The notes under the pieces are model-generated. The model was not told the origin of the DNA. It saw only the letters and a list, made by a program, of their open reading frames with translations, and did not search any database. From positions 691 through 64,690 of the forward strand of contig CAZJZV010000008.1 in assembly GCA_964550635.1 (NCBI GenBank): a stretch of 64,000 nucleotides of DNA, given 5' to 3'. Shown piece after piece: positions 8,001 to 46,845 of this stretch. The stretch is from an uncultured Bacteroidaceae bacterium (lineage in GTDB: Bacteria > Bacillota > Clostridia > Christensenellales > CAG-917). Every line of letters begins with the position of its first letter. Position 1 is the first letter of the stretch. Position numbers and translations under genes: made by a program.

Positions 8001-9517
8001 CCGTTGCTATCCTTGACGTAGGCGGAGTAGGTGATATCGATGACGTCGCCAAGGGTGAGAGTGTCGATAGACTTGCTCAAATCCTTGAGAGCAGTGTCTT
8101 TGAGAGTGAGAAGAATCGCGGGACTTTCGTCGTTGATTTCGATGAGGTCGCAAAGGCGGAGTGCCATAAGGCTATCCGTTGCGTTGTTGAGACCGCTGAC
8201 GGTGGTGCGAGCGATTGCTTGGATTGCGGTGTCCGACGTGCCTTTATGCACGAGAAGGTAACTTTCGTCACCGCCTACGATAAGGCGGGTGTCCGCGGAA
8301 GGATATTCTTCGACGTCTTTGCCGTAGACTTCCATATTGACGAGAGTTTCGCCGTCGAGATATTTATCCGCGCTCGTGACGATAACGCTCGTGCCTGCAG
8401 TGCCTGCGATAGTGAGAGTGTCGAGTGCGATGAAACCGCTTTCGATAGGCGCATAAGAACCGTCCTTTTCGGCGAAGTGGTTGGAGTAGGTTTGGAGATA
8501 GAGTTTCGCACCTTCGGTGATATTGGTTGTGGTCGCCTTTTCGTATTCGACGAAACGATAATAGGTCTTGCTTTCTTCACCTTCTTCGGTGGTGGTGTAG
8601 CAAGAATTATCCACTTTATAGACGGGATTTCCCGCTTCGTCGGTGACCGCGACTTTGTTGCCGTTTTCGTCGGTGGTAGCCTTTTCCACAAAACGAAGTT
8701 CTTTATAGATGAGATTTCCTTCATCGTCCGCACCCGCGACGTAGGTCGTTGCGCCCGCTTTCACGGAGTCGATGTCGCTTGCGCCGACTTGCTCGTAGCG
8801 GTCGACTTTGACGAAGACGGGGTTTGCGCCGTTGAGAATGAAAGCATCGCAGTCCGCGTCGATAATCGTGCCGACTTCGAGTCCGTTGACGATTGAGCCG
8901 AAAGCGGAAAGGGGAGAATCTTTGATTTGGTCGAAGATTGCGTTTTCACCGAGAGTCAAACCGAAGTTTTCTTCGATTTGGCGGAGAGTCATATTGTCGC
9001 CGTCGATACCGGACAGGATTTCGTCAATCGCTTTGGTGACGCTGTTGTAGAGATTGTCCTTGATGACGGGAATATCGTAGGTGCCGAAGTCGATACCCGC
9101 AAGAGTGCCGATGTCGTCGAGAGTGATATTTTCGACGATGAGATGCACGCTCGAGCCGATTTCACTGATAGGGACTTCGAAGATAGGGGAGAAGTCGATG
9201 CCGTCGATGATTGCACCGAGACTATCGAGTTTTCCGTTCAAGCCGTATTTATCCGCGATTTCACGGAGAGACATATTCGAGAAATTGCCGAAATCGCCGA
9301 TGAGCGACTTGCCGAGATCCCAAAGCGATTTATTTTCCGCTTCGCTACCCGCGTCGATGATTGCGCTTTCTCCTTCGAGACCGACTTTTTGTTGCAGGTC
9401 GCCGACGGTGATTTGAGTCGTGATTCCGAAAACGGTGCCGACGATTGCGACGATAAGGAGTATGATTCCGAGAATCATACCGAGAACGAAAGTTAACGTG
9501 CCTCTCAATACTTTCAT
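5096..9517 (-). CDS. giant N-terminally membrane-anchored, repeat-containing cell-envelope protein (1473 aa), function unknown
   Basis: N-terminal TM helix (TLTFVLGMILGIILLIVAIVGTVFGI). The body is Thr/Tyr/Asp/Gly-rich with internal tandem repeats and a recurring LxDV(I/L)D(I/V) motif. ATG preceded by AGGAG. Confidence 0.8.
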   Translation of the reverse strand: MKVLRGTLTFVLGMILGIILLIVAIVGTVFGITTQITVGDLQQKVGLEGESAIIDAGSEAENKSLWDLGKSLIGDFGNFSNMSLREIADKYGLNGKLDSLGAIIDGIDFSPIFEVPISEIGSSVHLIVENITLDDIGTLAGIDFGTYDIPVIKDNLYNSVTKAIDEILSGIDGDNMTLRQIEENFGLTLGENAIFDQIKDSPLSAFGSIVNGLEVGTIIDADCDAFILNGANPVFVKVDRYEQVGASDIDSVKAGATTYVAGADDEGNLIYKELRFVEKATTDENGNKVAVTDEAGNPVYKVDNSCYTTTEEGEESKTYYRFVEYEKATTTNITEGAKLYLQTYSNHFAEKDGSYAPIESGFIALDTLTIAGTAGTSVIVTSADKYLDGETLVNMEVYGKDVEEYPSADTRLIVGGDESYLLVHKGTSDTAIQAIARTTVSGLNNATDSLMALRLCDLIEINDESPAILLTLKDTALKDLSKSIDTLTLGDVIDITYSAYVKDSNGIYVYVSQQATYKPAASDFTGDRYVANFATAADGKYVAIDGAYYLYDENNADMAGLTRYEKTFVLATADEIANNNIVKYERIDNGGYYTLYNPDEHDGMQRYSKLTDESDSTAPDYILATSAQIADSAIVKYYWNGTAMQTTAIDGAPAYVKGSASSKVLQRLASISIGDFSDSFSELVLGDVLDVEMDVYVTATAPFADTVDYYYFENGVYKIADVHDSTFMAAHADTVFYEISVAGASNAVLKKLAFTKIDDMATKMDEIIDDMRLNEVIDITVDLYMPDVNGKFVYVANGGYYTLYNPAIHSETATRYSKIVGLKDDGSGNMVEFSYVVASAEQIADDSVVKYYWNGSAMQTAVVAGATAYVEGTVSSSTLQRFAKVKIGNFSAAFDEVILSDVIAIDGDVYAKANALDSFTEAADTTDESKTYFIYSAGNYDAVTRTYITANPTETYYEFVGGKFYRYVNGVYVESDPVFVGSHTSEQYYELTASGTTHAVLRKMAYLPVNELGNSMDTVINDMYLKDLIGINEYDVVQDSVVADSDESARWLVEKDDNYTSTVGGVNYYYTFTYDINGKYYLRSDVYQKLTAEQLAKFELGTITYGYTQFTASDAAEFAIAATAHPYMYYCADASAENAEYSLNPALSIYLASKGTYNKTYYRDTTTSGYSGKTYRQVSTGGSALLYVNFNGAYVPYDATNPAHSDMDIYIHLENGYTPNASGSYFIDYTTGDYVSATSSSTIDLAFAKLPAKTVGSVTYYYYAKLDAEYHAAKEAGYSVITFSKNICDDVYIVDEDGDYTLFNGDYVLKTSLPAGAVGEGSFSHTIAYVAAVGENYLQDDSGTLITPISTRKVQIVTAKSAHVIRAFATHDVKVGSLDNAMKTFTLSDLMAIEPDSLFDDEDVKSTTLDNLGKVFQTKLQSMTVNDLLDWGNISSLKPEVLSIIGDVRLEKFFDALEYTNGNIMVNLEKLFA
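6400..7770 (-). repeat. tandem intragenic repeat (two units of about 210-250 codons) inside the giant protein gene
   Basis: NGGYYTLYNP...KYYWNG(T/S)AMQT...(I/V)GDV(L/I) occurs twice. Nucleotide similarity is visible: GTTTGCATTGCGG(A/T)GCCGTTCCAGTAGTA at about 6938 and about 7580, 642 bp apart. The antisense shadow ORFs at 6941 and 7583 both start MHCGAVPVV. Confidence 0.65.
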
Positions 9518-11708: not shown

Positions 11709-15236
<3,528 letters not shown>

Positions 15237-32154: not shown

Positions 32155-32796
32155 ATGGCAAAGAAAACCCCAAGGATCGAACGTAAGGCAGTTTATGAAA
32201 CCAACGTCGTTACGTTGTGTCGCGACCGTTATAAAGACAAACTCGACGAAGTCAATGCCGAACTCGAACGCGATAATGCTCAATTGAAAGTTTGTTTGGA
32301 GAAAGGTAAACTCTCAACCGACGAAGAAGAGAAGCGCGCGCTCGCACGCGAAGTGAAGAAGATTCGCGATAAAATCGAAATATTCAAAGGCAATGAATTT
32401 ATGTTCCGCGAAACCGTCGATCTTTTCGACAAGTTGGTTGATATCTTGGATTCGTTGATGATGAGAGAACAATATAGAATCATCGTCCGCAAAATTCCCG
32501 AGAAGAAATTGCCCGATCTCGTCAGAGATCTAAAGCGCGAAAAACTTAACGAACTCTTGATGGAACTCATCAGAGTGCTTGACGTGGCAAACAAAAAGTC
32601 AATGCTTTCGTCAAAAGAATTGAAAGAACAATTGCATACACGCGATATCGAAAATGCAAATTTCATGGAACGCAATGCACCCAACGAGGATGACATTGAC
32701 GCAATCATGGCGGAATTTGAATCGGATACCGCAACCGTTACGGCGACCGTTGTGAATGAAACGAGCAACGTGAACAACGTCGTAAATAATAACTAA
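32155..32796 (+). CDS. ESCRT-III superfamily-like (Snf7/PspA-like) helical protein, paralogue 1
   Basis: 213 aa and predicted all-helical. It has a basic N-terminus (MAKKTPRIERK) and an acidic C-terminus with NEDDIDAIMAEFESD. That tail resembles the Snf7-family acidic tail and the E. coli PspA segment LDEAMARFESFE (recalled from memory). AAGGAG RBS. Confidence 0.45.
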   Translation: MAKKTPRIERKAVYETNVVTLCRDRYKDKLDEVNAELERDNAQLKVCLEKGKLSTDEEEKRALAREVKKIRDKIEIFKGNEFMFRETVDLFDKLVDILDSLMMREQYRIIVRKIPEKKLPDLVRDLKREKLNELLMELIRVLDVANKKSMLSSKELKEQLHTRDIENANFMERNAPNEDDIDAIMAEFESDTATVTATVVNETSNVNNVVNNN

Positions 32797-32822
32797 AAAA
32801 TAATTAAGTGGAGGAATACACT

Positions 32823-33458
32823 ATGAGCAAAATCGACAAAGAACTCAAAAAAGAAGAAACCATCGCAAAGAGTTTGGCTACCATCATCGAGGCACGCGAA
32901 TCCGTTGAAAGCCTTGTGAAACAATACGACGAGTGGATCGACCAAGCGTTTGAACTCGGCGAAACGGAATATAGCGATCAACTCATCGCAGACCAAGTCG
33001 AGCTCGAAGAATTTTCGCGCAATCTTTCGTTCGTCGAAGTGAGAATTCGCGAATCCGCAGTGAGCGCAAGAGCTTTCGGAAAACTCAAATGCTTGCCCAA
33101 CGCGATGAAGTGCTGCAAGGATTTGTCCAGTGGTCTCAATCTTCCCAAAATCGGAAAGGATATGGTTGCATTCAGAAAATCTCTTGATAATGCACGCGCA
33201 TCTCTCAAAGATTTGAGAAGCGAAATGTCCGCCGACGACAAGTTCAGTAAGCTTGTGTTGAACGAAAAACTCGGCAGGAAGATTGATTCCAAAACGGCTC
33301 AAGCAATCGAACAAAAGAAACTTGCTCGCGAAGGACGCCTTGCACAAAAAGTTAGCAACAATTCGGTTGCTCCCGTCGCTTCCGGTATCGGAGCGGACGT
33401 TTCCGCAGGTATCGACGCTATCACCGCAATGATAGACGAAGAAAACAAGAAAAACTAA
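32823..33458 (+). CDS. ESCRT-III-like (CHMP2/Vps2-like) helical protein, paralogue 2
   Basis: 211 aa. ATG 32823 follows GGAGG. The segment AMKCCKDLSSGLNLPKIGKDMVAFRKSLDNA parallels human CHMP2A AMKGVTKAMGTMNRQLKLPQIQKIMMEFERQAE (recalled from memory). The C-terminal GIDAITAMIDEE helix is similar to the tail of paralogue 1. Confidence 0.55.
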   Translation: MSKIDKELKKEETIAKSLATIIEARESVESLVKQYDEWIDQAFELGETEYSDQLIADQVELEEFSRNLSFVEVRIRESAVSARAFGKLKCLPNAMKCCKDLSSGLNLPKIGKDMVAFRKSLDNARASLKDLRSEMSADDKFSKLVLNEKLGRKIDSKTAQAIEQKKLAREGRLAQKVSNNSVAPVASGIGADVSAGIDAITAMIDEENKKN

Positions 33459-33478
33459 CCTGACGAGGAAGAACAAAG

Positions 33479-34753
33479 ATGGCAGATTCAATCAAAGAGT
33501 CCTACGTAGCACTCATTGAAATCTATAATCAACATCGCACTTTGGGGGACAGTGCATCCGCTTTGCGCATTGCAAACGAGATCATCAAAATCGCAAGATC
33601 TCAATGCGCAAGAGACGATCTTCCGAAGCAAGTGAAAGATTACTATGCGTCAAGTTCCACGCCCATCAAAGAGTGGGTTGCGGGCATGAACGTTGCGCCG
33701 TTGCAACAAAAGTCGAATGCAAACAATCCGTCCGAAGACAAAATAAAGTCTACGGACTGGTTCGGCGCGGATATACCCAAACTCACTTTGCGCGACGTAG
33801 CAGGATTGCAACCGCTCAAAGACGAGTTCACCGTGAACGTCTTGGCGCCTATGTCTCCAAAATATGCTCCTATCTATCGGAAGTATAGAAAGGAAGTCGG
33901 CTTGCAAATCTTGATGTACGGCCCTCCGGGATGCGGAAAAACGCATATCGTCAAGTGCTTGGCGGGTACTCTCGGTTGCAAAATCGCGGTCGTTCAAGTG
34001 AAAGACGTCATGGCGAATCTCGTCGGCGACGGCGCGAAAATCATAGCGGAGATATTCGAACAAGCCAAAAAGTTCGACAAATGTATCATATTCTTCGATG
34101 AAATCGATGCAATCGCCGCAAGCCGTGACGACGACGAAAGTCGCCATACGAAAGAGCAGTTGACGACGTTGCTCACGAATATGGACGGGTTCACTTCATC
34201 CACGAAACCCAATCAAATTCGTATCATCATCGCGGCAACCAATCGTCCGTGGGTACTCGATAGCGCGGTTAAGCGCGGTGGACGTTTCGACACTCAAATC
34301 TACGTCCCGCTCCCCGATTTCGAGGCGCGTGCAAGACTTATCGAGCTTGCTCTCGGGAAGGACGAGAAAGTCAAAGACCGTATCGACGTCCCCTGCGACG
34401 ACGACGTGACTATTGAATGGCTTGCAGAGCGATTTGAGGGCTATTCGGGCGGCGATATTAAGGCGATCTGCAAACAGATTATCAACAGACCGCTCAAACG
34501 TGAAATCGACGCATTGCGCACAACCGGTCAGGTTGTGAGCGATCGTATAACTCGGGAAGATTGCGAGTTCGTGATGAAACGCTACATCAATTCTATCACC
34601 GACGAAATGTTGTTCAGTTACGACGCCTACGCCGCCAATATGGACCTTGCAGAATATCTTGCGCTTTACGAGCAAAAGGCAAGAGAAGACGAGGCAAACG
34701 GTATTCCGCTTCCTGCGCACGTGCAACGTTGGCTCGACGATATGGACAACTAA
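33479..34753 (+). CDS. Vps4-like (meiotic-clade) AAA ATPase with N-terminal MIT-like helical domain
   Basis: Walker A GPPGCGKT and Walker B [37 protein letters not shown] is nearly identical in pattern to Vps4 [37 protein letters not shown] is also present. The N-terminal roughly 75 aa is helical with no TM. Confidence 0.8.
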   Translation: [424 protein letters not shown]

Positions 34754-34763
34754 AACGTACCTG

Positions 34764-35705
34764 ATGGGAACGAACTTTGACCAAAAACTGAAAAACGCTT
34801 ACGTTGCGGCAAAATCGTACGCGACGCGCGGAGATGCAGTAAACGCACGAAATTGCGTGCTTGAATGCATGGAGTCTTTGCTTGAATTGTACAAAATCAC
34901 AAAGAGTCCGTCCGAGCGTGCAAAGATATACGCCAAAGTTGTCGAGTTCAAAAATATTTCTTCCGAACTCTACAAGAACGGCGTGAACCAAAAGGTTAAA
35001 GCGTGGTTTTGCATTGCGGAAACCGCCAAGAAAGAAGCGCCGACCGAAAATAAGCGCGGTGCGACTTCGGACGATATGCTTTGGACGGAAAAGGTTTTTC
35101 GCAACAACTGTTCGTCCGTAATGTCAATCCGTTGCTCACTGCGGAACGGTGAGTGCTTTAGCGGGACCGGATTTAGCATATCCGAAAACGGCTATCTGTT
35201 GACGAATCACCATGTGGTGTACGACGAAAACAACGATGAGTATTGCAAAATCATATACGCTACTCCGTTCGGACAGTCGAAATCGTATCAAATAGAATTG
35301 ATCGACGCGGACGAAAAGAACGACGTTGCGCTTTGCAAATACGATCCGACCGAGATGGACGGAGTTACGGCAGTCAAACGCATTGACGACTACGAAAGAG
35401 TGTCTCAAGGTATGGGAGTGTTGTCGATAGGCAACGGACTTTCCATGGGACTTGCTCCGATAAGCGGTATAATCAAGTTCACGAAAGGGACTCTCGTCAC
35501 CACCGTACCGTTGAATAAGGGCGACTCCGGTTCGCCGGTGTTCAACCCCGACGGCGAATGTATCGGCATCAATTGCTCCACTACCGCAGAAGTTATTCGC
35601 GGAAATCACGTATGTGAAGCAGTGGGCATATCCAACGCAACGCCTATGTGCACCATCGATAAACTGCTTGATAAGTGGTGCGCAAAATACGACATACAAT
35701 TATGA
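34764..35705 (+). CDS. MIT-like domain fused to a trypsin-fold (S1/HtrA-like) serine protease
   Basis: The catalytic triad is readable: His in LLTNHHVV, Asp in NDVALCKY, Ser in NKGDSGSPVF. The N-terminal 75 aa (AKSYATRGDAVNARNCVLECMESLLELYKITKSPSERAKIYAKVVEFKNISSELYK) parallels helices 1-3 of the Vps4 MIT domain. Confidence 0.7.
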   Translation: MGTNFDQKLKNAYVAAKSYATRGDAVNARNCVLECMESLLELYKITKSPSERAKIYAKVVEFKNISSELYKNGVNQKVKAWFCIAETAKKEAPTENKRGATSDDMLWTEKVFRNNCSSVMSIRCSLRNGECFSGTGFSISENGYLLTNHHVVYDENNDEYCKIIYATPFGQSKSYQIELIDADEKNDVALCKYDPTEMDGVTAVKRIDDYERVSQGMGVLSIGNGLSMGLAPISGIIKFTKGTLVTTVPLNKGDSGSPVFNPDGECIGINCSTTAEVIRGNHVCEAVGISNATPMCTIDKLLDKWCAKYDIQL

Positions 35706-35712
35706 GGTTAAT

Positions 35713-37308
35713 ATGATACTAGAAAAAATCCGCGACCTATACGTTCAGGCGCGCGAACTAGCAAAAACGGGTAATAATTCCAATAGCCTTATCGTGATAA
35801 ACAATATCACGGAAATTTCTAACTACGTAAAGGAACTTTATGAGCAGAGTACCAATATGGAGCGCATAAAGTGCAGAGCGCAATACGAGGGTTTTGACAA
35901 CGTCGTCAATATCATCAAAGTTTGCGGACTAAAGGATGAAAGAGTAAGGGCGTTTTTCGGGCTTGCACCGTCATCCGCGCACGCTCCGTCGTTCTCCGAT
36001 ATATTGAACGGCAACGTTCCTCAAACACCTCAAAATGCGGGTTCTAACACGGCAAAACCGAGTGCAAACGGTGTTGGCGCACCTGTCGCAAAAAGCAAAA
36101 AGCCCGCCAATCAACCGAAAATCGGCGCCGTTGCATCGGGAGCTGATAGCACTTTCGACGACGGTAAAATAAATCCTAAATACACCCCCGATAGCCTTGA
36201 CGACTTCATAGGTCAAGAGCGTGTGGTTAGGGAACTGAAACGCGAAATCAAAATCGCGAAAACAAACGGACGTCATAACCTTGACAATATCCTGTTGTTC
36301 GGCAATCCCGGACTCGGGAAAACCACTCTTATGAAATTGATTGCGGCGGAGTTGGGCGCGGAATACGAGCCTTTCGACTGCTCGCAAATGGGCAACACGC
36401 AACAAACGTTGAAGAAGATGCAAAGCTTTCTCATCCGCGTGTCCAAAATCAATAAGCCCGTCGTCATCGCATTCGATGAAATACATATGTTGAGTCGCGA
36501 ATTGCAGTCCGCACTTTTGACATTGCTCAACGATAGAGTGTTCGTGTCGCCGCCCGACTTGAACGGTAATATCAAACGAATACCGATTGAAAACTTCACT
36601 TTCATCGGCGCGACGACCAACGACGAAGGCGTCCTGCCCACGATAAAGAACCGTTGCTTGGGACTCACGTTCCAACTTGTCGACTACACGAACGACGAGC
36701 TCAAACGTATATATAGGAATAAGGTCGCGTCCAAGGGCTTGACCATATCCGACGACGCAATCGAAGTTTGTATTCCGAGAAGTCGCGGTGCAATCCGCTA
36801 CGTCAATTCCTTTGTCGACGGACTCGATAAGGCGCTCTATAACGACGACGGTATGCGTACCTCCTTCCATATCGACCTCGACGTCGCTCTCGCATACTTT
36901 GAGAAGAAAGGCATCGACCCCATGGGGCTCACCGATAAGGACCTTGAAATCCTGCATACCCTCGAAGAAACGGACGGTATGGGCGTGGATGTTCTCGCCG
37001 CAAGAGTCGGCTTGGATTCGAAAAAGTATCAATCAGAGTACGAAAAATATCTCATCAAGATAGGGTTCATCGACGTGAACGGCAAAGGTCGCACTCTTAC
37101 GGATAGAGCATTGCGCTATCTCAACGCAACGGGCGGGGATGATGACGGCGAAGTCGCACCCGATTGCCCCGACGAAACCGACAACAACGGCGGTTGCGAC
37201 GATTCTACCATCGACACAACCCCCGAAACGGCCGAACAAGATCAACCAGAAACCTCTTCGGACAACGACGTCCCGAAAGACATCATCGACGACCTATTCG
37301 GCGACTAA
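35713..37308 (+). CDS. MIT-like domain fused to a RuvB-type AAA+ ATPase with an acidic C-terminal tail
   Basis: FIGQERVVRELKREIKIAK...ILLFGNPGLGKTTL (compare RuvB FIGQE...LL.GPPGLGKTTLA), Walker B VIAFDEIHML and sensor FIGATTN. The winged-helix C-domain (GLTDKDLEILHTLEE...YEKYLIKIGFIDVNGKGRTLTDRALRYL) follows the RuvB domain III pattern. The N-terminal 70 aa is helical and MIT-like. The tail ends ...DVPKDIIDDLFGD. Confidence 0.7.
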   Translation: MILEKIRDLYVQARELAKTGNNSNSLIVINNITEISNYVKELYEQSTNMERIKCRAQYEGFDNVVNIIKVCGLKDERVRAFFGLAPSSAHAPSFSDILNGNVPQTPQNAGSNTAKPSANGVGAPVAKSKKPANQPKIGAVASGADSTFDDGKINPKYTPDSLDDFIGQERVVRELKREIKIAKTNGRHNLDNILLFGNPGLGKTTLMKLIAAELGAEYEPFDCSQMGNTQQTLKKMQSFLIRVSKINKPVVIAFDEIHMLSRELQSALLTLLNDRVFVSPPDLNGNIKRIPIENFTFIGATTNDEGVLPTIKNRCLGLTFQLVDYTNDELKRIYRNKVASKGLTISDDAIEVCIPRSRGAIRYVNSFVDGLDKALYNDDGMRTSFHIDLDVALAYFEKKGIDPMGLTDKDLEILHTLEETDGMGVDVLAARVGLDSKKYQSEYEKYLIKIGFIDVNGKGRTLTDRALRYLNATGGDDDGEVAPDCPDETDNNGGCDDSTIDTTPETAEQDQPETSSDNDVPKDIIDDLFGD

Positions 37309-37331
37309 AAAACCAAAGGGAGAGATTACAA

Positions 37332-38147
37332 ATGAAACAAACTAAAATCAGAACAAAAATCGACTTGTTGAAAGCACTCGACAACCTTACAAAAGTCGAT
37401 AACGAGTATTTGCCTGTCAATTCAGACAAGTATAAAAAAGTGAAAGAACACAAAGATCTGATACAACTTATCGCTACCGGTTTGCCAAAAACGGCGGATA
37501 TAAGCGATTTGAGTTCGCTTGACTTCGGCGAGCAGTCGCTTGAAGAATACGTAAAAAACAACAGCGTCGAAACAGTCGAAAAAAGGCTCATCTCGATTGA
37601 GAGCGACATAAACACAAGAACGTCGCAATATGCCAATACGTATTTTGAAAAAAAAGAAGCTGATAAAAAGAAAGAAGACGTTGTAATTTTTGGCGAAGAT
37701 CTTATTGAGGTTTATGATACAATGCAAAGTCGGAACCATAAGAGGCTCATTGCCTTTGCCGTAGTTTTCATAGTATCCTCTGTAATTTTCGCGGCGGCGG
37801 CAATATGCTTGTTGATTGATTCAATAAAATGTTTTTTGGGAGAGAGCGGAGTGACGATTTGTTCCGCTATTTGCACCGTCGCAGGTGTGGCAGATTTTAT
37901 AAACGGTGGAGCGTTTTCTGTATATGAACGCATTGATGACAAGAAAAAGACCAAGGTCAACAATGAAGCCGCAAAATCATTAAAAACTAAAAACCCCGCT
38001 ATTGCTTTTAGGGAAGTAAAGAATAGTATTATTATTGACGGCAAAGCGTGCGGTGTTATTATTAATAAAACGGTGAACAATGGAGGGGAAAATACAAATG
38101 AAAATAATGAAAAAACTGGGCAAGATATTTCCACAACGAAAGAATAA
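37332..38147 (+). CDS. membrane protein with a central 2-TM hairpin, function unknown
   Basis: ATG 37332 follows AAGGGAGAG. 271 aa with a helical N-domain, then LIAFAVVFIVSSVIFAAAAICLLI and VTICSAICTVAGVADFINGGAF. No family recognised. Confidence 0.55.
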   Translation: MKQTKIRTKIDLLKALDNLTKVDNEYLPVNSDKYKKVKEHKDLIQLIATGLPKTADISDLSSLDFGEQSLEEYVKNNSVETVEKRLISIESDINTRTSQYANTYFEKKEADKKKEDVVIFGEDLIEVYDTMQSRNHKRLIAFAVVFIVSSVIFAAAAICLLIDSIKCFLGESGVTICSAICTVAGVADFINGGAFSVYERIDDKKKTKVNNEAAKSLKTKNPAIAFREVKNSIIIDGKACGVIINKTVNNGGENTNENNEKTGQDISTTKE

Positions 38148-39597
38148 GAAGACGGAAGTTGAGTCTGCACAACAGGATAAAAATCTAGTTGGCGGTGAAG
38201 ATAACGGCATCACTTTGAATGCGGTAGACACAGCGCAAACGAATGACGACTACTCTTGTCTTCGTCAGGTTGAAGATTATCAAGACGACCAATCAATAAG
38301 CGAAAGCGATAAAAAAACTGACGGCGTCGCAGATTTTTCTATAGTCGATGACTCTACTGCTACTTTGGATGATGAACAACAAACTGATAGAAATACACAA
38401 GCAGCAAATAGCAGGTCGAAAGAAAACAACAAAGAGAACTCGTCATCACAGCCCAGCAATAATTCTAATGGTGACATTACTAATAGTGTTGTAATAGGGG
38501 GCAACCTCTTTGGATTGGCGCTGAATATTGTTCGAAATGGTGTTTCTAAACTGTGGGTAAAAAATAAAATTAAAGAGTCGGATAAGAAGAACGAAGTTGA
38601 GCGTGCGAAGCTTGAGACTCGAATAGATAAATATTTGCTTATTAAAATTGCGGAGAGCAAAGAAGAAATAATAAAAGAAATCAAGGGTGAATTAGATCAG
38701 CAAATAAAACACCATAATGATTTTGAGTCGGCAATTAAAGCGACGGTTGCTAATCTGTCGGATGCTTGGGGAAGATTTTCTGACGACATAATAAAACGAC
38801 TTGAAAAAGTCGAAAATTTGGATTCTCAAGTTGCTAACGCAAGTAAAATCTTAGAAGAGCACAAAGTAAGAATTGATGCATTAGAAGGTCGGCAAATAGA
38901 ATTCATGGAATATGCAATGGATTATATTAATTCATTGAAAAATTCTTTGGAAGAAGTCAGCAATAAAACTAACGAACTAGAAGAGGAAGTAAGACGATTA
39001 AAAGAAGAACTGGAACGGATAAAAAAACTTATCTCGTCGCAAAAGCTCGACCCTCGCTATGAAATTTGCCCTCGATGCGGATCATACCATTCGTTTGACA
39101 CATACAAAAGAGGTGAAGAAGGAGAAAAACCATATTACATATGTGCAGTCTGTGGCCGAAAAGATAATGATGACGAAGATAATATTCAAATTATAAAGGA
39201 CGATAAGAGTATAAATTCGGAACTTCACGTTCTAGCATCATCGGTATTGGATGATTCGATGAACAAACATGGTTTAACGAGTATAAAACGCGTGTTAGTC
39301 AAAAATAATATACAAAAAATTGGCACATCACAAGGTGGGAGCGCAATTAACAAATATTATGGAAAATTGGAGGTTTTTTCTCTCAGCAATCCAAATGAGA
39401 AAGGTGAACCACATTATACATTGGGCAAAGGGCTGTTTGATTTTAGCAATAATCGGAAATGGATAAAACTATATGGAATGAAGTATGTGAAAACAATTGA
39501 AGACGGATGTTTTAAGGGCATAGAAAGAGGAAAAAGAGAAGCATTTTGGAAAAAATACGGCTTCACACTTAAGCGCGAAGATAAGTATTTTTGCTGA
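38098..39597 (+). CDS. coiled-coil protein with zinc-ribbon (CxxC...CxxC) and C-terminal globular domain, function unknown
   Basis: ATG 38098 lies 9 nt after GGAGGGG and overlaps the previous gene by about 50 nt. It has an acidic, low-complexity N-region and a long heptad-like stretch (LEEVSNKTNELEEEVRRLKEELERIKKL). The zinc ribbon reads CPRCGSYH...CAVCGRKD. The C-terminus is faintly LRR_5/BspA-like. Confidence 0.5.
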   Translation: MKIMKKLGKIFPQRKNKKTEVESAQQDKNLVGGEDNGITLNAVDTAQTNDDYSCLRQVEDYQDDQSISESDKKTDGVADFSIVDDSTATLDDEQQTDRNTQAANSRSKENNKENSSSQPSNNSNGDITNSVVIGGNLFGLALNIVRNGVSKLWVKNKIKESDKKNEVERAKLETRIDKYLLIKIAESKEEIIKEIKGELDQQIKHHNDFESAIKATVANLSDAWGRFSDDIIKRLEKVENLDSQVANASKILEEHKVRIDALEGRQIEFMEYAMDYINSLKNSLEEVSNKTNELEEEVRRLKEELERIKKLISSQKLDPRYEICPRCGSYHSFDTYKRGEEGEKPYYICAVCGRKDNDDEDNIQIIKDDKSINSELHVLASSVLDDSMNKHGLTSIKRVLVKNNIQKIGTSQGGSAINKYYGKLEVFSLSNPNEKGEPHYTLGKGLFDFSNNRKWIKLYGMKYVKTIEDGCFKGIERGKREAFWKKYGFTLKREDKYFC

Positions 39598-39610
39598 TTA
39601 AGGAGGAAAT

Positions 39611-40246
39611 ATGGATTTGTTGACAATAGTTTTGATAGTGGGACTATCGTGTATGACAATGGCGTTTGTATGTGCCTTATGTGTGTGTGTTAAGCAGCAT
39701 TGGAGTTTCGAATGCGAACAAAACGCATTGGCATCTGCACTCAATAATAAGGCTCGGCAAAAAGATTGCGCCAAAGGTGTTGCTCATTTGACTGCTGATG
39801 AATTGATCGCGCAAAAAAACGAAGAAATTGCATCTCTCAATGATATGATAGCAAAATATGAAGAAGAACATAGGCGCAACGTCGAGGTGGAAAAGAAGCT
39901 AGAAAAGCACTACGGCGATGCAGGCATTTCTTTAAGCAATTTGATTGGATATACCGAAGACTGTAGAAAAACGCTTAAACATGATTATATTGAAAGAGGA
40001 GTAGAATATTCTTGTGATGATATTGATTATGTTTTAAAAGCAATTTTGAGAGAAGAAATTTGTATTGTTGAAAGATTGCCCAATTATTATCCACAAATAG
40101 GGGAGAAAATTGATTGCGCGTGCATGGAAGAAGTCGGGGAGAAAAATTATGGTTACATAACTCAAATTGTGGAACCCGGGAAAAAATGTGGAACTTTCGT
40201 GGTTCGCAAAGCAAAAGTAAAAACAGAAAGGAGAATACAAGAATGA
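39611..40246 (+). CDS. N-terminally membrane-anchored coiled-coil protein with GrpE-like C-terminal domain
   Basis: TM helix LLTIVLIVGLSCMTMAFVCALCVCV. Coiled coil EEIASLNDMIAKYEEEHRRNVEVEKKLEK. The C-terminus (IGEKIDCACMEEVGEKNYGYITQIVEPGKKCGTFVVRKAKVKTE) parallels the GrpE beta-domain (VGKPFDP.LHQAVMQVE...V.E.LQKGYKL.DRVIRPSMVKV). It lies immediately upstream of, and overlaps, the Hsp70-like gene. Confidence 0.4.
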   Translation: MDLLTIVLIVGLSCMTMAFVCALCVCVKQHWSFECEQNALASALNNKARQKDCAKGVAHLTADELIAQKNEEIASLNDMIAKYEEEHRRNVEVEKKLEKHYGDAGISLSNLIGYTEDCRKTLKHDYIERGVEYSCDDIDYVLKAILREEICIVERLPNYYPQIGEKIDCACMEEVGEKNYGYITQIVEPGKKCGTFVVRKAKVKTERRIQE

Positions 40247-42039
40247 AACAAATTATTACGATAGGCATCGACATTGGCACTCAATACTGCAGTGCAGGTT
40301 ATGTTTTGGATAATGAATATCATCAAATTGATTTTGCCAACTGTCCGTATGGAATTCCGACAACGGTATGTTTAAGAAGCGCCGATGCCAATGAAAAAGA
40401 AAACATTGTAGAGCAGCATGATGGCAAAAAATACGTAGTGGAATCAGGCACAAATGCGGTTGATAAAATAGATACAGACTATTCTAATGGGAGCGTATAT
40501 ATATTATCGCCTTCACAATCGATAAAAACGCTCATGAGAAAAAATGTGAAACAAGTAAAGTTATTTAATAATATCACGTCACTAGATGAAGATTTCGAAA
40601 CTAAAGAATTAGTATATAACTTTATTTGGCATGTAGTAGATAAAATAATAGATAAATTCCGCGCTAATGGAATTAATTTAAACGATTATAAATTAGTCGT
40701 CAATATGGGCTATCCGGGGAAAGATGAGTTAAATTCCAACGAAGAAGAAAACTACAAGAATGAGATTGCACGCATAGTAGGCAGTGCGTTTAATTTAAAG
40801 GTAGACGGAGCAAATGTAGAGGTTAAAGCTATAAGCGAAGCAGCGCTAGCGGCAGATTTGCTAAAAAATATCTGCTTGGAAAATAATGGATCGCCGAAAC
40901 AAAAAGTTTGTACAATTGACGTGGGTGCTGGAACTACCGATTTGGCTTTTTTGAAATTGGATGAAAAAACACACAAATATTTGTGTGAAGGTCAAACGAC
41001 ATGCAATTTTGGGGGGAAAAGCATCGATCTAGTTCTCGGGGATCAAAGCCTGGAATGGGAACGAGAAAATGGAGGCATTCATAAAGGCGAATTAAATCCC
41101 GCTCACCTTCGTCCGGATACTATAGCAAAACGCAAAAAATGGATTTTCACCGGAAATGCCGAAGATGGTAAGATAACTGGTTATGATAATATATATCTCA
41201 GTAAGAAAATTGGTGAGTATATTGAAAACGATACTATTGTTACAGAAGAACGTGATTTGGGCACTTTAAAAACCAAATTTGAAAAATTTATAGAAGAAAT
41301 TACAATAGAAGTAAAAAATAATGAGGCAGACGTCGCATTTGTTTTATTGGGCAATTCCAGTCATTTGTCTTATATCAGAGATATGATTGAGGAAACAGTG
41401 AAGCGTAAATTGAGCAATCTAATGGTGAAGGTAGACATTTCATTTTTGGAAGATGCATTAAAGAACACGCCGTTGAATTATATAAACAATTCAAATTTTA
41501 TTGCCAGAGCGGCTGCCGGTTATGAAAATGATATGATAACTACTAATTGTTATGCATTTAGTTATTATAACAAAGAAAAGAATGAAAATGGTTATAAAAT
41601 AATTTCGAGCAAGGGAAATCTAAAAGGATCTTATTATGACACCGAGGCGGACTATATGGTTAATAAGGAAAACAACGAATGTGATTTCGAGGTTGGCGGA
41701 ACAGTGTATAGCATTAAAATACTAGAAAGCGAAGCAATGCAAAAAGCAAATGTTGGCAAGGATTTTTATTATTTAAAGGGGAGCGTACAACCTAAAAACG
41801 TAGACATTGATAAAGAAAATATAAAATATTATAAGCCAACACTAAAGGGAAAGGGCTTGAGATACAACGTAGGGTGCAGTATTGACGATCAGGGAAAATT
41901 AAGTATATGCGTCTTCGCTAATGATAATGACAAAAAGACAAGCGAGGAGAGAAAGAATTTTTTGGAAAAAGCGATTAAAACGGCAGACGCACACGGTAAT
42001 CTTAGCCGTTGGTTCGAATTAAAAAATTACAAAGTATAA
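40243..42039 (+). CDS. divergent Hsp70/actin-fold ATPase (DnaK-like nucleotide-binding domain plus unrelated beta-rich C-terminal domain)
   Basis: Phosphate-1 motif ITIGIDIGTQYCSAG and phosphate-2 motif CTIDVGAGTTDLAFLKL. 598 aa. Its ATG overlaps the upstream stop (ATGA). It is Asn/Lys/Ile-rich. Confidence 0.65.
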   Translation: MKQIITIGIDIGTQYCSAGYVLDNEYHQIDFANCPYGIPTTVCLRSADANEKENIVEQHDGKKYVVESGTNAVDKIDTDYSNGSVYILSPSQSIKTLMRKNVKQVKLFNNITSLDEDFETKELVYNFIWHVVDKIIDKFRANGINLNDYKLVVNMGYPGKDELNSNEEENYKNEIARIVGSAFNLKVDGANVEVKAISEAALAADLLKNICLENNGSPKQKVCTIDVGAGTTDLAFLKLDEKTHKYLCEGQTTCNFGGKSIDLVLGDQSLEWERENGGIHKGELNPAHLRPDTIAKRKKWIFTGNAEDGKITGYDNIYLSKKIGEYIENDTIVTEERDLGTLKTKFEKFIEEITIEVKNNEADVAFVLLGNSSHLSYIRDMIEETVKRKLSNLMVKVDISFLEDALKNTPLNYINNSNFIARAAAGYENDMITTNCYAFSYYNKEKNENGYKIISSKGNLKGSYYDTEADYMVNKENNECDFEVGGTVYSIKILESEAMQKANVGKDFYYLKGSVQPKNVDIDKENIKYYKPTLKGKGLRYNVGCSIDDQGKLSICVFANDNDKKTSEERKNFLEKAIKTADAHGNLSRWFELKNYKV

Positions 42040-42088: not shown

Positions 42089-42136
42089 TGGGGGGAAATG
42101 GTGGGGGAAAGGGGAATCCTTTTCCTGTTTTTTTGT

Positions 42137-42189: not shown

Positions 42190-45100
42190 TTATTCGTTGT
42201 AGTCCTCGTATTTGTCGCGTTTTTCGGTGATTGCTTCGGTGTTGGTTTCGGCAAGCACTTTGTCTTTCGCGGGTTTGCGGTACTTCTTGACGAAGAACAC
42301 GATTACGACGGCGATGGTTGCGACTGCGATGATGATCGAAGGAATCATCCAAGCAAGGTTGACGAGATTGAAGGAACTTGCTTCGGGAGTTTCGGTGGTG
42401 TCGTCGACTTTGGTTTCGGTGTCACCGGTTTGGGATGCGGGTTTGACTTCGCGCACTTTGACGGTGGAAGCAAGGGTGCCTGCATCTGCTTGCGCCTTCA
42501 TATTGTCGTAGACTTCTTCGGTCACGGTTTCGAAGGTGATAGCGTCGAACATTGCGTAACCGCTTGAGAGTTTGGTTTCGTCGTCCGCGTCGTAGTCACC
42601 GAGTTGGAGTTTGAGAGTTGCGGAAGTGACCTTATCGTCGAGAGTCTTGACGTAGAAGGTGTATTCCGTCCAGCCTTCAGCCTTGATACCTTCGAAGACG
42701 AGCGGATTTTCGCTATCGTTTGCGGAGCCGAGATAGAACTCAACGCTTGCGCCTGCGCCGGTTGCTTTGAACGTACGCACGTACACGCTTACCTTATAGA
42801 AGGTTTCCGCATTGAGAGTGTAACTGTTGCTGGTGTAGAGATAAGAGCTGGGCGCGGTGTTGTTGATGACAAGGAAGTTCTTTCCGATGACGGAAGAAAC
42901 GTCGTTGCCGTTCGCATCCTTCATTGAGAGCAAATCGCTTGCGGAGATGTAGTTTGCCTTCATATCCGCGTACATTTCGCGTTTTTGGAGAATGGTTTCG
43001 ATTTCCGCATCGGTCTTGCCGGGGTAGGTTGCCTTTGCGCTATCGATGTCGCTTTGCTCGATCTTGTAGTTGCTTTGCTTATAGGTCTTGCCGAAGAGAG
43101 AGACGGTTTGTCCCATTTCGCTCAAGATGTCCTTGTAGAGATCGTCTTCAAGGTCTGCGGAGTCGATATCGTGTTTGGGAAGTGCGCTTGCATCCGCATA
43201 GATGACGCCGCCCTTGGTGTCGGAAGCGGATTGTTCGGTGTCTGCGGATCCCGACCAACCGGAAGGAGTGGAGAGTTCGCTTCTGGACGCTACGTTATCG
43301 GAAGCGGTGTCGAAACCGTCGGTAAGGTAGGTGATCTTTCTATCGACGTTATTGTTGAGAGAAAGCGCGTTGAACTCATCGTCGGTCATGGTGGTGAGAG
43401 TGACGTTGTCGAACAAGACGATACCGGAAGACGCTTCGTCCGCGACGTCGCCGAGATCGCCGGAGATTGCTTGGTCGTAGCCAATGCCGAGGCGGAGTTT
43501 CAAGGAAGAAACGCTGGTCAAACCGACTTGGATATAGAAGGTGTATTCAGTCCAATCGGTGGAACCGACGGTCTTGACTACGAAGTTGGTGTTTTCTGCG
43601 ATACTACCGCTCGAACCGCCGGTGAGATAGATACTGAAAGTGGTTGCTTCCAAGGTCTTAACCCACACGCTGAGTTTGTAGTTGTTGTTTGCGGAAGCGG
43701 AGAAGGTGCCGGACGCAAAGGAGCGGGTGTACTTCTTGCCGTTGAGTCCTGCAAACGCAAGGACGTAAGGTGCGCCGATGCGTTCCGCATTCTCGAAGTA
43801 GGTGTCGTCTTCCGCACCGTAGAGAGTGTTGAAGGACGTTGCGACGGAGTCGCCGAACAACGCTTTGATTTGTTCGCTTGCGTCGTAGTAGTTGTCGTTG
43901 TCCGCTTGTTTGTCGAGTTTTACGATACCTGCAACGAGATTTGCATCGTCCTTGTAGGTTTCTTTGTAGGTGTTGGTGTCGTCCGTGTCGTCGCCGTTGG
44001 GCTTGTAGGTGGAGTCGTTGATGGTCCAGTTGGAAGGCACGCCTGCGTAGTTATTCTTCGCAAGGTCGCCTTGAGCGACGTTACCGTCCGTCCACTTGGT
44101 GTCCGAAACGTTGAAGTTGGAGAAACTGCCGTTGGTGAAGGACGGGGAGGTGGATGCCGCGGAAGACGCAAGGCTTACTGCCTTGACGGTGTTGCCGGTG
44201 GAGACGTCCGCATAATCGTCGTATTCGATTTCGGTCATGCTGATATTGGACACGAACGCTACGCCGTTTGCAAGGGTGGAAGAGGACCAACGATTGCCGG
44301 TGCCGTAGGTGATGCGCAAAGAGAGGTTTTGTGCTTCGAGTTCGTTGCCTTTCACGTAGAAGGAGTATTCCTTCCAAGTGGTGGTTTCGACGTTGTCATC
44401 GTCGTAGGTGGAAGTGTTGATGAGAGTGAAGGAAGACTTGTCGTTGCCTTCGCCGTCAACGAGACAGATATAAACGCCGGAAGTGGACTTGATACCTACC
44501 GTCTTAACCCAGAGAGAGATGCGATAAGTGCCGTTCTTGGAGACCGCAAATTCGTCGGTTTCAAAGAGGAAGTAGGAGTCCGCCGCGTTGGACTTGAACA
44601 TAAGGGCGCGTTCGCTTTCGATTGCGTAAGGGGTGCCCGGGTGTTCGACGCCGTATTGAGTGAAGTTTGCATCTGCGGCAAGGCTGACTACGCCTGCGGT
44701 AACGTCGACGACGGGAAGAGTATCGTCGTTGCCGATTTCGTCGAGAAGGCTACTTGCAGAGAAGCCTGCGGGGGTGCCGAGAGTGTTGTTGTCGTAATCC
44801 GCCGCATTGTCCGAAACGTTTTGGAAGTTTGCGGAGATTGCGCTACCGTCGAAAAGGTTGACGGTGGAGAGGTCCACTTTTGCGTATCTTGCGGAGCTAT
44901 CGCTTTCAAGGTCGACTTCGTAGTCGGTGAGTGCGCCTACGTTCGTCCACGCGTCTTCGGTGATTTCTGCAAGGTTGACTTCGTCAAAGAATGCCCAACC
45001 GGTTGCGAAAGTGCCGTTGGATTTGTAAGTGGTTTGGTTTTCGTTGAATTTGGTTGCGCTCTCGTATTCGGTATAGGTCACCGTGGAGTTGTCGTAGGTG

Positions 45101-46629
45101 TTGCCGGTGCCGAGCCACAAGGACATTGCGTAAGAAGTGTTCTTATATTGATTGCCCGCGATATAGAAGGTGTAAGTCGTCCATGCGCCGTTGGTGCCGA
45201 TTGCGGTGCCGCCGTAGTAGCCGTCTTGGAATTGGTCGTCCGTTCTATTTGCGCCGATGCCTTTGATGAGAATATCTTTGCCTTCGCCCGAGAGTTTGAG
45301 AGTAACGCCCGCGCCGTGCACGCTATAAGTCAAGACGGACACGGAGATTGCGTAGAATTTACCTTTTTCGACGACTATATTCTTGGAAGATTTGAGACCG
45401 TTTGCGGTCATCTTTTGTTGAGAGAGCATATAGACGTTGGTGCCGATTCTGTTGTCACCGAAAGTTTTGATGGTGTTGGGGAAGTCGTTGGACGTCAAGT
45501 AGTTTGCGGGATATTTGATGGTTGCGTCGCCTTCGCCTGCTTTCTCGTAGTGAGTGGAAGCGTAGTCGGAGTAATTTTCGTCAAACTTGGACACGTCGAT
45601 GATACCGTTTTTGCCAAGACCGGTGGGTGCGTTGCCGTCGGTGACGACAGACCAGTTGGAAGCCGTTGCGGAAGTGCCGACTTTGGTGGTGCCGAAATCG
45701 AAACGACCGTTGGGGACTTTGACGGTGAGAGTTTGATTGCTTTCGCGGAATTGTGCCGCGGTGACGCTTGCGTTGCCGTTCAATTCGGTTGCGCTTGCGG
45801 TCGCATATTCGGTGTTTTCGATTTCAACGAGATTCACGTTGTCGAAGAATGCGTAACCGCTCGTAAGACCGTTGGTGTATTCGGAAGTGTATTTGCCGAG
45901 ACCGAGTTGCACGGTGAGAGAGGTTGCGGATTCCGCACCGCCTTCGATATAAAGGGTGTAGGTTTTCCATTCGCCGTTGGTGTTGACGTTTGCAAATTCC
46001 GCATACGCGTTGGAAGAAACGTAAATTCTTGCGCCGGGATTGGCGGATGCGCTTTGATTGCCTTCGTCGTCAAGGGTGCCTTGGATGCCGTAGGTGAGAA
46101 CGTCAACGGAGAGTTTGTAGTATTTGTTCGCCTCAAGAGAGAAGGATGCGGAAGTGTAGCCGTATGCGGTGGGACCGTAGTCGTCCTTGCTTGCATCGAC
46201 GATATCCGCTTTCTTGGGCATATAAATCATGAGCGCGTTGTTGACCGCGCCTTCTGCGGAAGAATAGTGGGACTTGAGAAGATTGTAGATGGTCTTATCT
46301 TCGTCTTTCCATGCGGATGCGTTTGCGGAGTAGAGCGCTTCTTCAAGGCTGATTGCGCCTGCGATGACGCCCTTGGGATAAGAACCGCTACTGTACATGG
46401 AAGCGCCTTTCCAGTCCGTTATGGAGAGGGGATAGGTCGAAGAGGACGTATCCACGACTTTGAAATCGGAGTTGGAAATCAAGAGTCCTTCGGTTGCCTC
46501 GATTTTGGTTTCTTCTTCGGGGGTGGCTGCGGGTGCTTCCGCGTTGTTGCACGCGACGAAGAGGGTGAGGGACAGCACCATAAGAAGTGCGGTCATGAGT
46601 GCTAATAAAGTCAGTCTTTTCTTTTTCAT
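42190..46629 (-). CDS. giant cell-surface lipoprotein with five CBM-like beta-sandwich modules and a C-terminal transmembrane anchor
   Basis: Start taken at ATG 46629 (after AAGGAAAG): MKKKRLTLLALMTALLMVLSLTLFVAC|NN, a lipobox. The module pattern recurs five times, e.g. NKYYKLSVDVLTYG...GEWKTYTLYIEG...LTVQLGLG...GYAFFDNVNLVEI. The C-terminus is AWMIPSIIIAVATIAVVIVFFVKKYRK. Confidence 0.8.
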   Translation of the reverse strand: MKKKRLTLLALMTALLMVLSLTLFVACNNAEAPAATPEEETKIEATEGLLISNSDFKVVDTSSSTYPLSITDWKGASMYSSGSYPKGVIAGAISLEEALYSANASAWKDEDKTIYNLLKSHYSSAEGAVNNALMIYMPKKADIVDASKDDYGPTAYGYTSASFSLEANKYYKLSVDVLTYGIQGTLDDEGNQSASANPGARIYVSSNAYAEFANVNTNGEWKTYTLYIEGGAESATSLTVQLGLGKYTSEYTNGLTSGYAFFDNVNLVEIENTEYATASATELNGNASVTAAQFRESNQTLTVKVPNGRFDFGTTKVGTSATASNWSVVTDGNAPTGLGKNGIIDVSKFDENYSDYASTHYEKAGEGDATIKYPANYLTSNDFPNTIKTFGDNRIGTNVYMLSQQKMTANGLKSSKNIVVEKGKFYAISVSVLTYSVHGAGVTLKLSGEGKDILIKGIGANRTDDQFQDGYYGGTAIGTNGAWTTYTFYIAGNQYKNTSYAMSLWLGTGNTYDNSTVTYTEYESATKFNENQTTYKSNGTFATGWAFFDEVNLAEITEDAWTNVGALTDYEVDLESDSSARYAKVDLSTVNLFDGSAISANFQNVSDNAADYDNNTLGTPAGFSASSLLDEIGNDDTLPVVDVTAGVVSLAADANFTQYGVEHPGTPYAIESERALMFKSNAADSYFLFETDEFAVSKNGTYRISLWVKTVGIKSTSGVYICLVDGEGNDKSSFTLINTSTYDDDNVETTTWKEYSFYVKGNELEAQNLSLRITYGTGNRWSSSTLANGVAFVSNISMTEIEYDDYADVSTGNTVKAVSLASSAASTSPSFTNGSFSNFNVSDTKWTDGNVAQGDLAKNNYAGVPSNWTINDSTYKPNGDDTDDTNTYKETYKDDANLVAGIVKLDKQADNDNYYDASEQIKALFGDSVATSFNTLYGAEDDTYFENAERIGAPYVLAFAGLNGKKYTRSFASGTFSASANNNYKLSVWVKTLEATTFSIYLTGGSSGSIAENTNFVVKTVGSTDWTEYTFYIQVGLTSVSSLKLRLGIGYDQAISGDLGDVADEASSGIVLFDNVTLTTMTDDEFNALSLNNNVDRKITYLTDGFDTASDNVASRSELSTPSGWSGSADTEQSASDTKGGVIYADASALPKHDIDSADLEDDLYKDILSEMGQTVSLFGKTYKQSNYKIEQSDIDSAKATYPGKTDAEIETILQKREMYADMKANYISASDLLSMKDANGNDVSSVIGKNFLVINNTAPSSYLYTSNSYTLNAETFYKVSVYVRTFKATGAGASVEFYLGSANDSENPLVFEGIKAEGWTEYTFYVKTLDDKVTSATLKLQLGDYDADDETKLSSGYAMFDAITFETVTEEVYDNMKAQADAGTLASTVKVREVKPASQTGDTETKVDDTTETPEASSFNLVNLAWMIPSIIIAVATIAVVIVFFVKKYRKPAKDKVLAETNTEAITEKRDKYEDYNE

Positions 46630-46845
46630 ACTTTCCTTTATGCCTAATTGTGATGCGAATTTTATTTGCACGCGTTGTCCGCGCGTTATATATAATTATA
46701 GGCTATGATATGATATAACAAAATCAATAATTTGGCAAACGTATTTCATATTTTCTTGCAAATTAAAGAAAATATAATTATGAACAGCGGACTTTTTGTG
46801 GTTGAATACCCGTCGAAATTCAAAAAGAGCAACGAAAAGAGCGGT

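Follow-up and report, generated by a model that had tools for sequence, protein, structure and literature searches.

Known members of the eukaryotic and archaeal ESCRT-III/MIT network that dock on MIT-interacting motif (MIM) tails are Vps4/CdvC, spastin, katanin, calpain-7/PalB, AMSH, USP8, ULK3, and MITD1. In eukaryotes, MIT domains dock Vps4, spastin, calpain-7, and other proteins onto the tails of ESCRT-III proteins (PMC9477494, PMC10586806). For bacteria, a review from 2025 states that a Vps4-like ATPase appears to be absent (PMC7619361), and according to a preprint from 2024, ESCRT components are identifiable in archaea, not in bacteria (PMC11188069). What Ravi et al. (2024) described was limited to transfers of Vps4-like ATPases with snf7 displaced and to a two-domain AAA+ protein combined with PspA or Snf7 (PMC11237479); by a text search, RuvB and trypsin are not mentioned there. 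The subject of this report is a gene cluster in a 64,000-nt window of contig CAZJZV010000008.1 (the window is the whole stretch of DNA that was analysed). In it, a putative Snf7/ESCRT-III-family gene, designated X2, lies between the gene of a helical protein (X1) and three consecutive genes for a classic-clade AAA+ ATPase (A), a trypsin-like serine protease (B), and a RuvB-like AAA+ ATPase (C), which all begin with a helical module. A Snf7-family gene with an adjacent classic AAA+ ATPase, two further enzymes with MIT-like modules, and candidate hub proteins with conserved tail motifs contrasts with the statements of the review and the preprint (PMC7619361, PMC11188069). No description of a cluster of Snf7, AAA, trypsin-like protease, and RuvB-like genes with shared N-terminal modules was found in the literature searched; the first-pass annotation of this DNA likewise knew of no such combination characterised in bacteria.

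Among known systems, the ESCRT-III/MIT network of eukaryotes and archaea comes closest. As in that network, a Snf7-family gene adjoins the gene of a single-cassette classic AAA+ ATPase bearing an N-terminal three-helix bundle, further enzymes, one of them a protease (compare calpain-7), have MIT-like bundles, and the candidate hub proteins end in short conserved motifs behind flexible linkers. Unlike the network, the cluster is bacterial (Clostridia, Christensenellales-like bacteria, and Anaeroplasmataceae) and associated with an integrase in several loci. Its modules remain below Pfam MIT and are of two unrelated sequence types, and the module of the protease and the RuvB-like ATPase adds a conserved fourth helix and a motif. 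The protease is of the trypsin type and neither a calpain nor a JAMM enzyme; A is placed outside the Vps4/CdvC clade by model scores; and the tails are off the MIM1/MIM2 consensus. We know of no counterpart of the RuvB-like DNA-motor paralogue with an MIT-like module.

Three other systems share single features with the cluster. Bacterial PspA/Vipp1 (IM30) proteins fall within the ESCRT-III superfamily, are presumed to act on membranes, and sometimes have AAA+ partners (PMC11237479, PMC7619361). In contrast to them, the X2 family matches Snf7 (PF03357), and PspA_IM30 was not among the families matched by X2 members; also, their PspF is a transcriptional AAA+ protein and not a classic AAA ATPase bearing an MIT domain. 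The anti-phage system IetAS (Ietat) has an AAA+ ATPase gene beside a serine protease gene, and A matched IetA models of PADLOC with E 7e-41 and IteA of NCBIfam with E 1.7e-33. However, the match covers the generic AAA cassette only, with 116 bits versus the NCBIfam cut-off of 510 bits. IetS is a protease of the subtilisin type, not of the trypsin type, and IetAS is not known to have partners resembling Snf7, RuvB, or Hsp70, or to share N-terminal modules among its proteins. Membership in IetAS was rejected; in PADLOC and PHROGs, all matches were generic AAA or protease ones (IetA, TRIP13, RT-protease). Canonical RuvB is the branch-migration motor of Holliday junctions, and C aligns with it over the ATPase, lid, and winged helix. 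C differs from it by the N-terminal MIT-like module, a linker of about 70 residues, an acidic C-terminal tail, its position in an accessory island, and a score below cut-off: the NCBIfam RuvB model NF000868 covers residues 154–472 including the winged helix with 155.7 bits (cut-off 282), and TIGR00635 gave 149.5 bits (cut-off 299). With Pfam RuvB_N, AAA, and RuvB_C at residues 159–470, C is judged to be a divergent RuvB paralogue. None of the nine operon proteins matched RuvA or RuvC.

The first-pass annotation had claimed that one and the same MIT-like three-helix module is attached to three different enzymes in a row. The layout that it described was confirmed: A, B, and C each have a helical N-terminal module of about 70–88 residues, a low-complexity linker, and a catalytic part that starts after about 100–155 residues of module plus linker, and the peptides that it quoted are present. 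Three N-terminal bundles do stand where it placed them, but they are of two types. Module alignments were built from non-redundant N-terminal cuts of full-length homologues, of which at least 120 each were recovered for A and C and about 88 for B; most of those for B covered the query almost completely. The modules of B and C matched each other in BLASTP with E 3e-6, and their families aligned in hhalign with 98.7% and E 2.2e-16 over 88 columns. BLASTP between the modules of A and B reached only E 4.4, and no similarity was found between those of A and C; the corresponding hhalign scores were 31% (E 5e-4, helices 1–2 only) and 2%. The proposed alignment of the modules to each other therefore holds for B and C only. 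Hidden Markov models (HMMs) of the modules were also run against all open reading frames (ORFs) of the window and of 25 related loci. In many related loci, the B-module HMM found the N-termini of RuvB-like proteins and the C-module HMM found those of the proteases, and the A-module HMM matched AAA proteins only. No further ORF of the window and the 25 loci bears either module type in this search. By these comparisons, the B and C modules are true homologues, similar far beyond chance, and the module of A has at most a shared fold with them. Since the B and C models cross-match and the A model is confined to AAA proteins, there are, as judged from sequence, two module types, one private to the AAA ATPase and one common to the protease and the RuvB-like ATPase.

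The fold of the modules was modelled in AlphaFold2 with the family alignments of A and B, and the fold of the C module was taken from its homology to B. The B module was predicted with a mean local distance difference test score (pLDDT) of 88.2 and helices at residues 3–21, 25–45, and 49–72, followed by a short fourth helix at 76–81. The A module was predicted with pLDDT 88.4 and helices at 2–22, 25–44, and 50–71. An antiparallel three-helix bundle of about 70–80 residues, as known for MIT domains, is the predicted fold for A and B, and through B also for C. When the B module was compared with the PDB in Foldseek, 14 of the top 15 matches were MIT domains, and about 27 of the top 50 were MIT or katanin-type domains. 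Among them were MITD1, Vps4 (yeast, human, and archaeal/CdvC), NRBF2, ULK3, spartin, and katanin p60, and the MIT matches had a probability of 1.00 and E-values of 0.06–1. The superposition with MITD1 (4a5x) had a target-normalised template-modelling (TM) score of 0.82–0.84 and a root-mean-square deviation (rmsd) of 1.2–1.4 Å. For the A module, the best-fitting neighbours were the katanin p60 N-domain (rmsd 2.0–2.2 Å, TM 0.66–0.69) and the VPS4A MIT domain (rmsd 1.7 Å, TM 0.69), with E 1–4 and on ranks from 6th to 40th. Solved MIT domains are the closest structural neighbours of the B type (hence of C), and in part of A. An MIT-like fold is well supported by modelling for the module of the protease and the RuvB-like ATPase, and moderately supported for that of the AAA ATPase. 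The Foldseek comparison with MIT domains suggested in the first-pass annotation came out positive for the B type and mixed for A, with katanin p60 and VPS4A as the best fits. The protein that had been labelled Vps4-like carries the least MIT-like module of the three.

In profile searches against PDB sequences, the modules gave only local TPR-like and designed-protein matches and one marginal MIT match, that of the B profile to the MIT domain of Sulfolobus Vps4 (2v6y, E 0.92). The A-module profile matched the consensus TPR helix-turn-helix locally; the MIT fold is known to resemble the TPR helix-turn-helix. The C module had a sub-threshold match to Pfam Snf7 (E 8.5e-4). Its interpretation as an ESCRT-III hairpin was rejected, because the homologous B module is modelled as three helices of about 20 residues with MIT neighbours.

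A combined profile of the B and C modules was searched against 1.84 billion representative proteins, and 101 clusters were found (E <= 1e-3), almost all with the module match at or near the N-terminus. When 81 module-bearing proteins were scanned with Pfam, 35 were trypsin-like and 25 RuvB-like, and no other enzyme types appeared; the other 21, many of them short, were neither trypsin-like nor RuvB-like. Conservation is highest in a Tyr that ends helix 2, a KAK motif that opens helix 3, and G-x-x-x-x-V-x-x-x-F-G around the fourth helix. Y43, KAK, G72/73, F82, and G83 are common to the B and C modules. Canonical MIT domains are without both this G-x-x-x-x-V-x-x-x-F-G motif and the short fourth helix. 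From these profiles, the module of the protease and the RuvB-like ATPase is considered a new, very narrow, system-specific domain family.

The candidate hub proteins are encoded directly upstream of A. Of the X2 alignment drawn from related loci, 13 of the 15 members matched Pfam Snf7; the best match (E 1.8e-6, positions 4–156 of 171) reached 28.2 bits versus a gathering score of 27.3 and is the sole one above the cut-off. The X2 type of the window and a second X2 subfamily aligned in hhalign end to end over 199 columns (98.6%, E 5.9e-16). Transitive profile evidence supports X2 as a member of the Snf7/ESCRT-III family. The claim of ESCRT-III-like neighbours made in the first-pass annotation can be kept for X2 in this transitive way but not for X1, as hhalign of X1 against X2 and against the ESCRT-III alignment gave nothing. 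A syntenic homologue of X1 was recognised in 17 of 19 related loci examined, always directly upstream of X2.

X1 and X2 end, as ESCRT-III proteins do, in conserved short acidic-hydrophobic motifs behind low-complexity linkers. The tail of X2 follows a variable linker and is nearly invariant in the subfamily of the window as DIDAITAMIDEE(R/N)KK; in the other subfamily, it is conserved as TGDIDYAGIVAEENKKK. The motif of X1 reads (D/E)I(D/N/E)x(I/V)(M/I)xEF in the subfamily of the window and P..(D/E)EIExxIRxxExAIPD in the second subfamily, and we infer from it a MIM-like tail. The last residues of C, near-invariant in the subfamily of the window and absent from the second subfamily, resemble the tail motifs of X1 and X2. 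Because of this resemblance, C may be both a client and a docking site.

The AAA+ ATPase A matched Pfam AAA with E 1.8e-36, together with AAA_lid_3, at residues 144–347, and the motifs of Walker A, Walker B, and the Arg-finger region are invariant or nearly so in its family. Like Vps4/CdvC, it has a single classic-clade AAA cassette with these motifs intact and adjoins a Snf7-type gene: X2 is found immediately upstream, both in the window and in all related loci with enough sequence. Pore loop 1 is M-A-N-L-V-G-D-G (residues 178–185, positions 34010–34033 of the window), in which the aromatic residue of Vps4/CdvC is lacking. A Leu at this place is unusual for a substrate-threading classic AAA ATPase. 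In NCBIfam, A scored 161.6 bits with CDC48, 157.1 with PAN, 153.2 with FtsH, and 136.9 with CdvC (cut-off 650), all below the cut-offs, and its best PDB matches were p97, Cdc48, and Afg2. By model scores, A is not in the Vps4/CdvC clade and is not a Vps4 orthologue, and the earlier designation as Vps4-like was overstated, as CdvC scores lower than each of CDC48, PAN, and FtsH.

The core X1-X2-A-(B)-C recurs in many metagenome-assembled genomes (MAGs) from uncultured gut Clostridia and their relatives, with Christensenella-like bacteria, Coproplasma, Anaeroplasmataceae, and Bacilli represented. Wherever a locus has enough sequence, X2, A, and the RuvB-like gene are all present, and the protease is missing from only one. 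The order X2-A-B-C is kept in these loci even where the gene order is shifted or genes are inserted. In locus L031, the protease is relocated behind the Hsp70-like gene and its module is retained. A minimal system of X1, X2, AAA, RuvB-like, and two small genes lies in locus L029 (7415–13565) between pyrH and frr in a row of housekeeping genes. It is without the protease and the Hsp70-like gene, and its RuvB-like protein, which was read on 24 contigs, retains the module. In many loci, large multi-pass membrane proteins with BspA-type leucine-rich repeats (LRR) or Sel1 repeats are encoded between the protease and the RuvB-like gene (for example, L005 7489–9969, L007 7016–10004, and L019 6587–9975); these could be surface sensors. 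A tyrosine integrase gene stands directly upstream of X1 in several loci (L001 6292–7239, L027 5398–7344, and L031 6024–6971), in L027 together with a NusG-like gene, and a gene of a TraG/VirD4-type coupling protein adjoins one locus (L032 14029–15331). Judging from the mobile-island context of some loci and from the variable LRR/Sel1 membrane proteins, the function may lie in conflict, defence, or element transfer. A scan of IMG/VR with the C-module motif yielded no relative, and when C was searched by tblastn in GenBank phage records and B in PLSDB plasmids, only catalytic domains were matched, with no module-bearing relative. The possibility that the cluster is cargo of a known phage or plasmid was dropped, as the matches in these tblastn searches covered catalytic domains only.

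Probably, if only just so, the bundles dock on the X1/X2 tails, so that the AAA ATPase, the protease, and the RuvB-like motor come together on a single polymer at the membrane. X2, possibly with X1, would polymerise on a membrane in the manner of ESCRT-III proteins, and the exposed tails would act as MIT-interacting motifs on which the bundles dock. The AAA+ ATPase would be placed to remodel the polymer or extract its subunits, and the protease and the RuvB-like motor would accumulate at this site as well, beside the membrane proteins and the Hsp70-like ATPase encoded downstream. With two types of bundle and two or three of tail, a small binding code with selective pairing is suggested, not one universal adaptor.

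Several results weigh against such an arrangement. The module of A is not demonstrably related to that of B and C. Pfam MIT (PF04212) did not match any of the three isolated modules at E up to 10, and MIT is absent from the families found in the 81 module-bearing proteins (Pfam, E up to 0.001). An alignment of seven MIT sequences, each checked against its PDB entry (about 135–156 bits), served as the MIT reference in hhalign; the scores were 23% for B (P 9e-4, 62 columns, in register over the three helices), 25% for the combined B+C profile (P about 8e-4), 4% for A, and 1.6% for C. The resemblance to MIT domains noted in the first pass holds for the three-helix bundles (pLDDT 88) and their structural neighbours but finds no Pfam MIT match and only these profile scores of 1.6–25%, and membership in the MIT sequence family is not established. 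The Foldseek E-values were all above 0.05, as is expected for such small domains, and the list for the A module was mixed, with a mite allergen of poor rmsd in the top five places. A is not closer to CdvC than to CDC48, PAN, and FtsH, and in 114 of 121 members of its family, pore loop 1 has Leu where an aromatic residue is usual. The X2 of the window and five close relatives had no direct Snf7 match, the X2 profile found no ESCRT-III chain in the PDB, and hhalign of X2 against five PDB-verified ESCRT-III cores gave only 8%. X1 had no match in Pfam, NCBIfam, PADLOC, or PHROGs, i.e., it belongs to no detectable family. The X1/X2 tails have no exact fit to the MIM1 consensus and fit neither MIM1 nor MIM2.

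The bundles could instead be domains of self-assembly, partner pairing, or regulation, such as coupling of the protease to the RuvB-like hexamer or gating like that of the Cdc48/ClpA N-domains; they would then not bind the X1/X2 tails, and the likeness to MIT would be the geometry of a small fold. The B/C module is conserved most in the G-x-x-x-x-V-x-x-x-F-G motif and the fourth helix and not in the MIT-like core, it is found on just two enzymes, whose genes nearly always occur together, and the MIT links in sequence are weak, all of which fits this explanation. It is nevertheless rated as rather unlikely. The RuvB-like protein of L029 keeps the module without a protease, so pairing with the protease cannot be the only role of the module; the structural neighbours are specifically MIT domains and not generic three-helix bundles; and the strict linkage to a Snf7-family gene with conserved tails is what docking predicts. 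Still less probable is a coincidence, in which common helical extensions of 70–90 residues adopt three helices as the default fold and unrelated enzymes travel as cargo of a mobile element, with no ESCRT-like logic. Foldseek E-values above 0.05, the lack of a Pfam MIT match, the A module unrelated in sequence to those of B and C, an X2 assignment to Snf7 that is at threshold and indirect for the copy in the window, and the match of A to the AAA domain of anti-phage IetA models would all agree with it. Chance association is, however, at odds with the highly significant homology of the B and C modules, with the same core cluster in many MAGs of several lineages, with MIT domains among the top neighbours of the B module in a way not expected of a generic bundle (14 of 15), and with 13 of 15 X2 alignment members that independently match Snf7 across the whole model.

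If docking of the bundles on the X1/X2 tails is accepted, the cluster is a compact bacterial model of recruitment in the MIT-MIM style, with an unprecedented client in the RuvB-like motor. A wider proposal is tentative and rather doubtful: that this is the first ESCRT-III/MIT network known from bacteria, encoded by an operon that is accessory and often mobile. By means of a small code of two MIT-like module types and two or three tail motifs, a Snf7-type polymer would gather at the membrane a remodeller of the AAA+ class, a serine protease, and a RuvB-like DNA motor, with surface-exposed LRR/Sel1 membrane proteins and an Hsp70-like ATPase as neighbours. The purpose of such a network could be anti-phage or abortive defence, or DNA packaging or export via membrane remodelling. 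If this were true, enzyme recruitment based on MIT domains would be older than the archaeal-eukaryotic lineage or more widely transferred than within it. In any case, a likely accessory or conflict system of gut bacteria is flagged. Should recruitment prove wrong, the finding would still amount to a well-defined new domain family and operon, though of much lower general interest.

The genes from X1 through the Hsp70-like gene lie tightly packed on one strand (Table 1). They are an operon of about 10 kb (32155–42039) with A, B, and C at its core, and a strong terminator-like hairpin is located at 42104–42126, 3' of the Hsp70-like gene.

Table 1. Genes, modules, and tail motifs of the operon, with positions in the window
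Feature	Position	Strand	Remark
X1, 213-aa helical protein	32155..32796	+	family without database match
X1 conserved C-terminal motif NEDDIDAIMAEFES	32683..32724	+	
X2, Snf7/ESCRT-III-family protein (transitive profile evidence)	32808..33458	+	true start probably ATG at 32823
X2 extreme C-terminal tail AGIDAITAMIDEENKKN	33405..33455	+	behind Ser/Gly/Val-rich linker
A, single-cassette classic-clade AAA+ ATPase, 424 aa	33479..34753	+	Pfam AAA and AAA_lid_3
A module, N-terminal three-helix bundle (predicted), residues 1–72	33479..33694	+	AlphaFold2
B, trypsin-like (HtrA/Do-like, no PDZ) serine protease, 313 aa	34764..35705	+	Pfam Trypsin_2
B module, MIT-like bundle and short fourth helix (predicted), residues 1–86	34764..35021	+	AlphaFold2, Foldseek
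C, RuvB-like AAA+ ATPase with C-terminal winged helix, 531 aa	35713..37308	+	Pfam, NCBIfam
C module, homologue of the B module, residues 1–88	35713..35976	+	hhalign
C extreme C-terminal motif PKDIIDDLFGD, residues 521–531	37273..37305	+	ends acidic low-complexity tail
Probable membrane protein	37329–38147	+	
Coiled-coil/Zn-ribbon protein	38080–39597	+	
211-aa protein	39611–40246	+	
Hsp70/actin-fold-like protein	40243–42039	+	

The protease B matched Pfam Trypsin_2 at residues 134–269 with E 2.9e-17. Motifs typical of the His, Asp, and Ser sites of trypsins were recognised as TNHHVV (35202–35219), NDVALC (35319–35336), and GDSGSP (35520–35537). The mechanical ORF of B is longer (34647–35705), and the ATG at 34764 inside it is the likely start; C probably starts with the ATG at 35713. 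For X2, the GTG at 32808 that was assigned mechanically as the start is probably wrong, as the homologues start at the equivalent of the downstream ATG (MSKIDKE...). The first-pass annotation had ended its feature at 35940, which is about residue 76 of C and close to the end of the C module.

The Hsp70-like protein has IGIDIGT at its start, which is like the phosphate-1 motif of the Hsp70/actin fold. It had no Pfam HSP70 match of its own, and genes at the equivalent position in other loci match HSP70 and MreB_Mbl; genes of the Hsp70 family occupy this position in L001, L027, L030, and L031. The G+C content is 0.46–0.48 across X1 to C and 0.35–0.37 at 38001–42000, where the distal genes lie. 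From this drop, the distal and variable part of the operon seems to have been acquired by exchange from another source. The window has no tRNA gene to act as an attachment site, and no integrase-like ORF was seen next to the operon in the window, where the flanking ORFs were not scanned against family libraries. Elsewhere in the window, very large ORFs are present on the minus strand at 42190–46671, 5096–9517, and 11709–15236 (1493, 1473, and 1175 aa, respectively).

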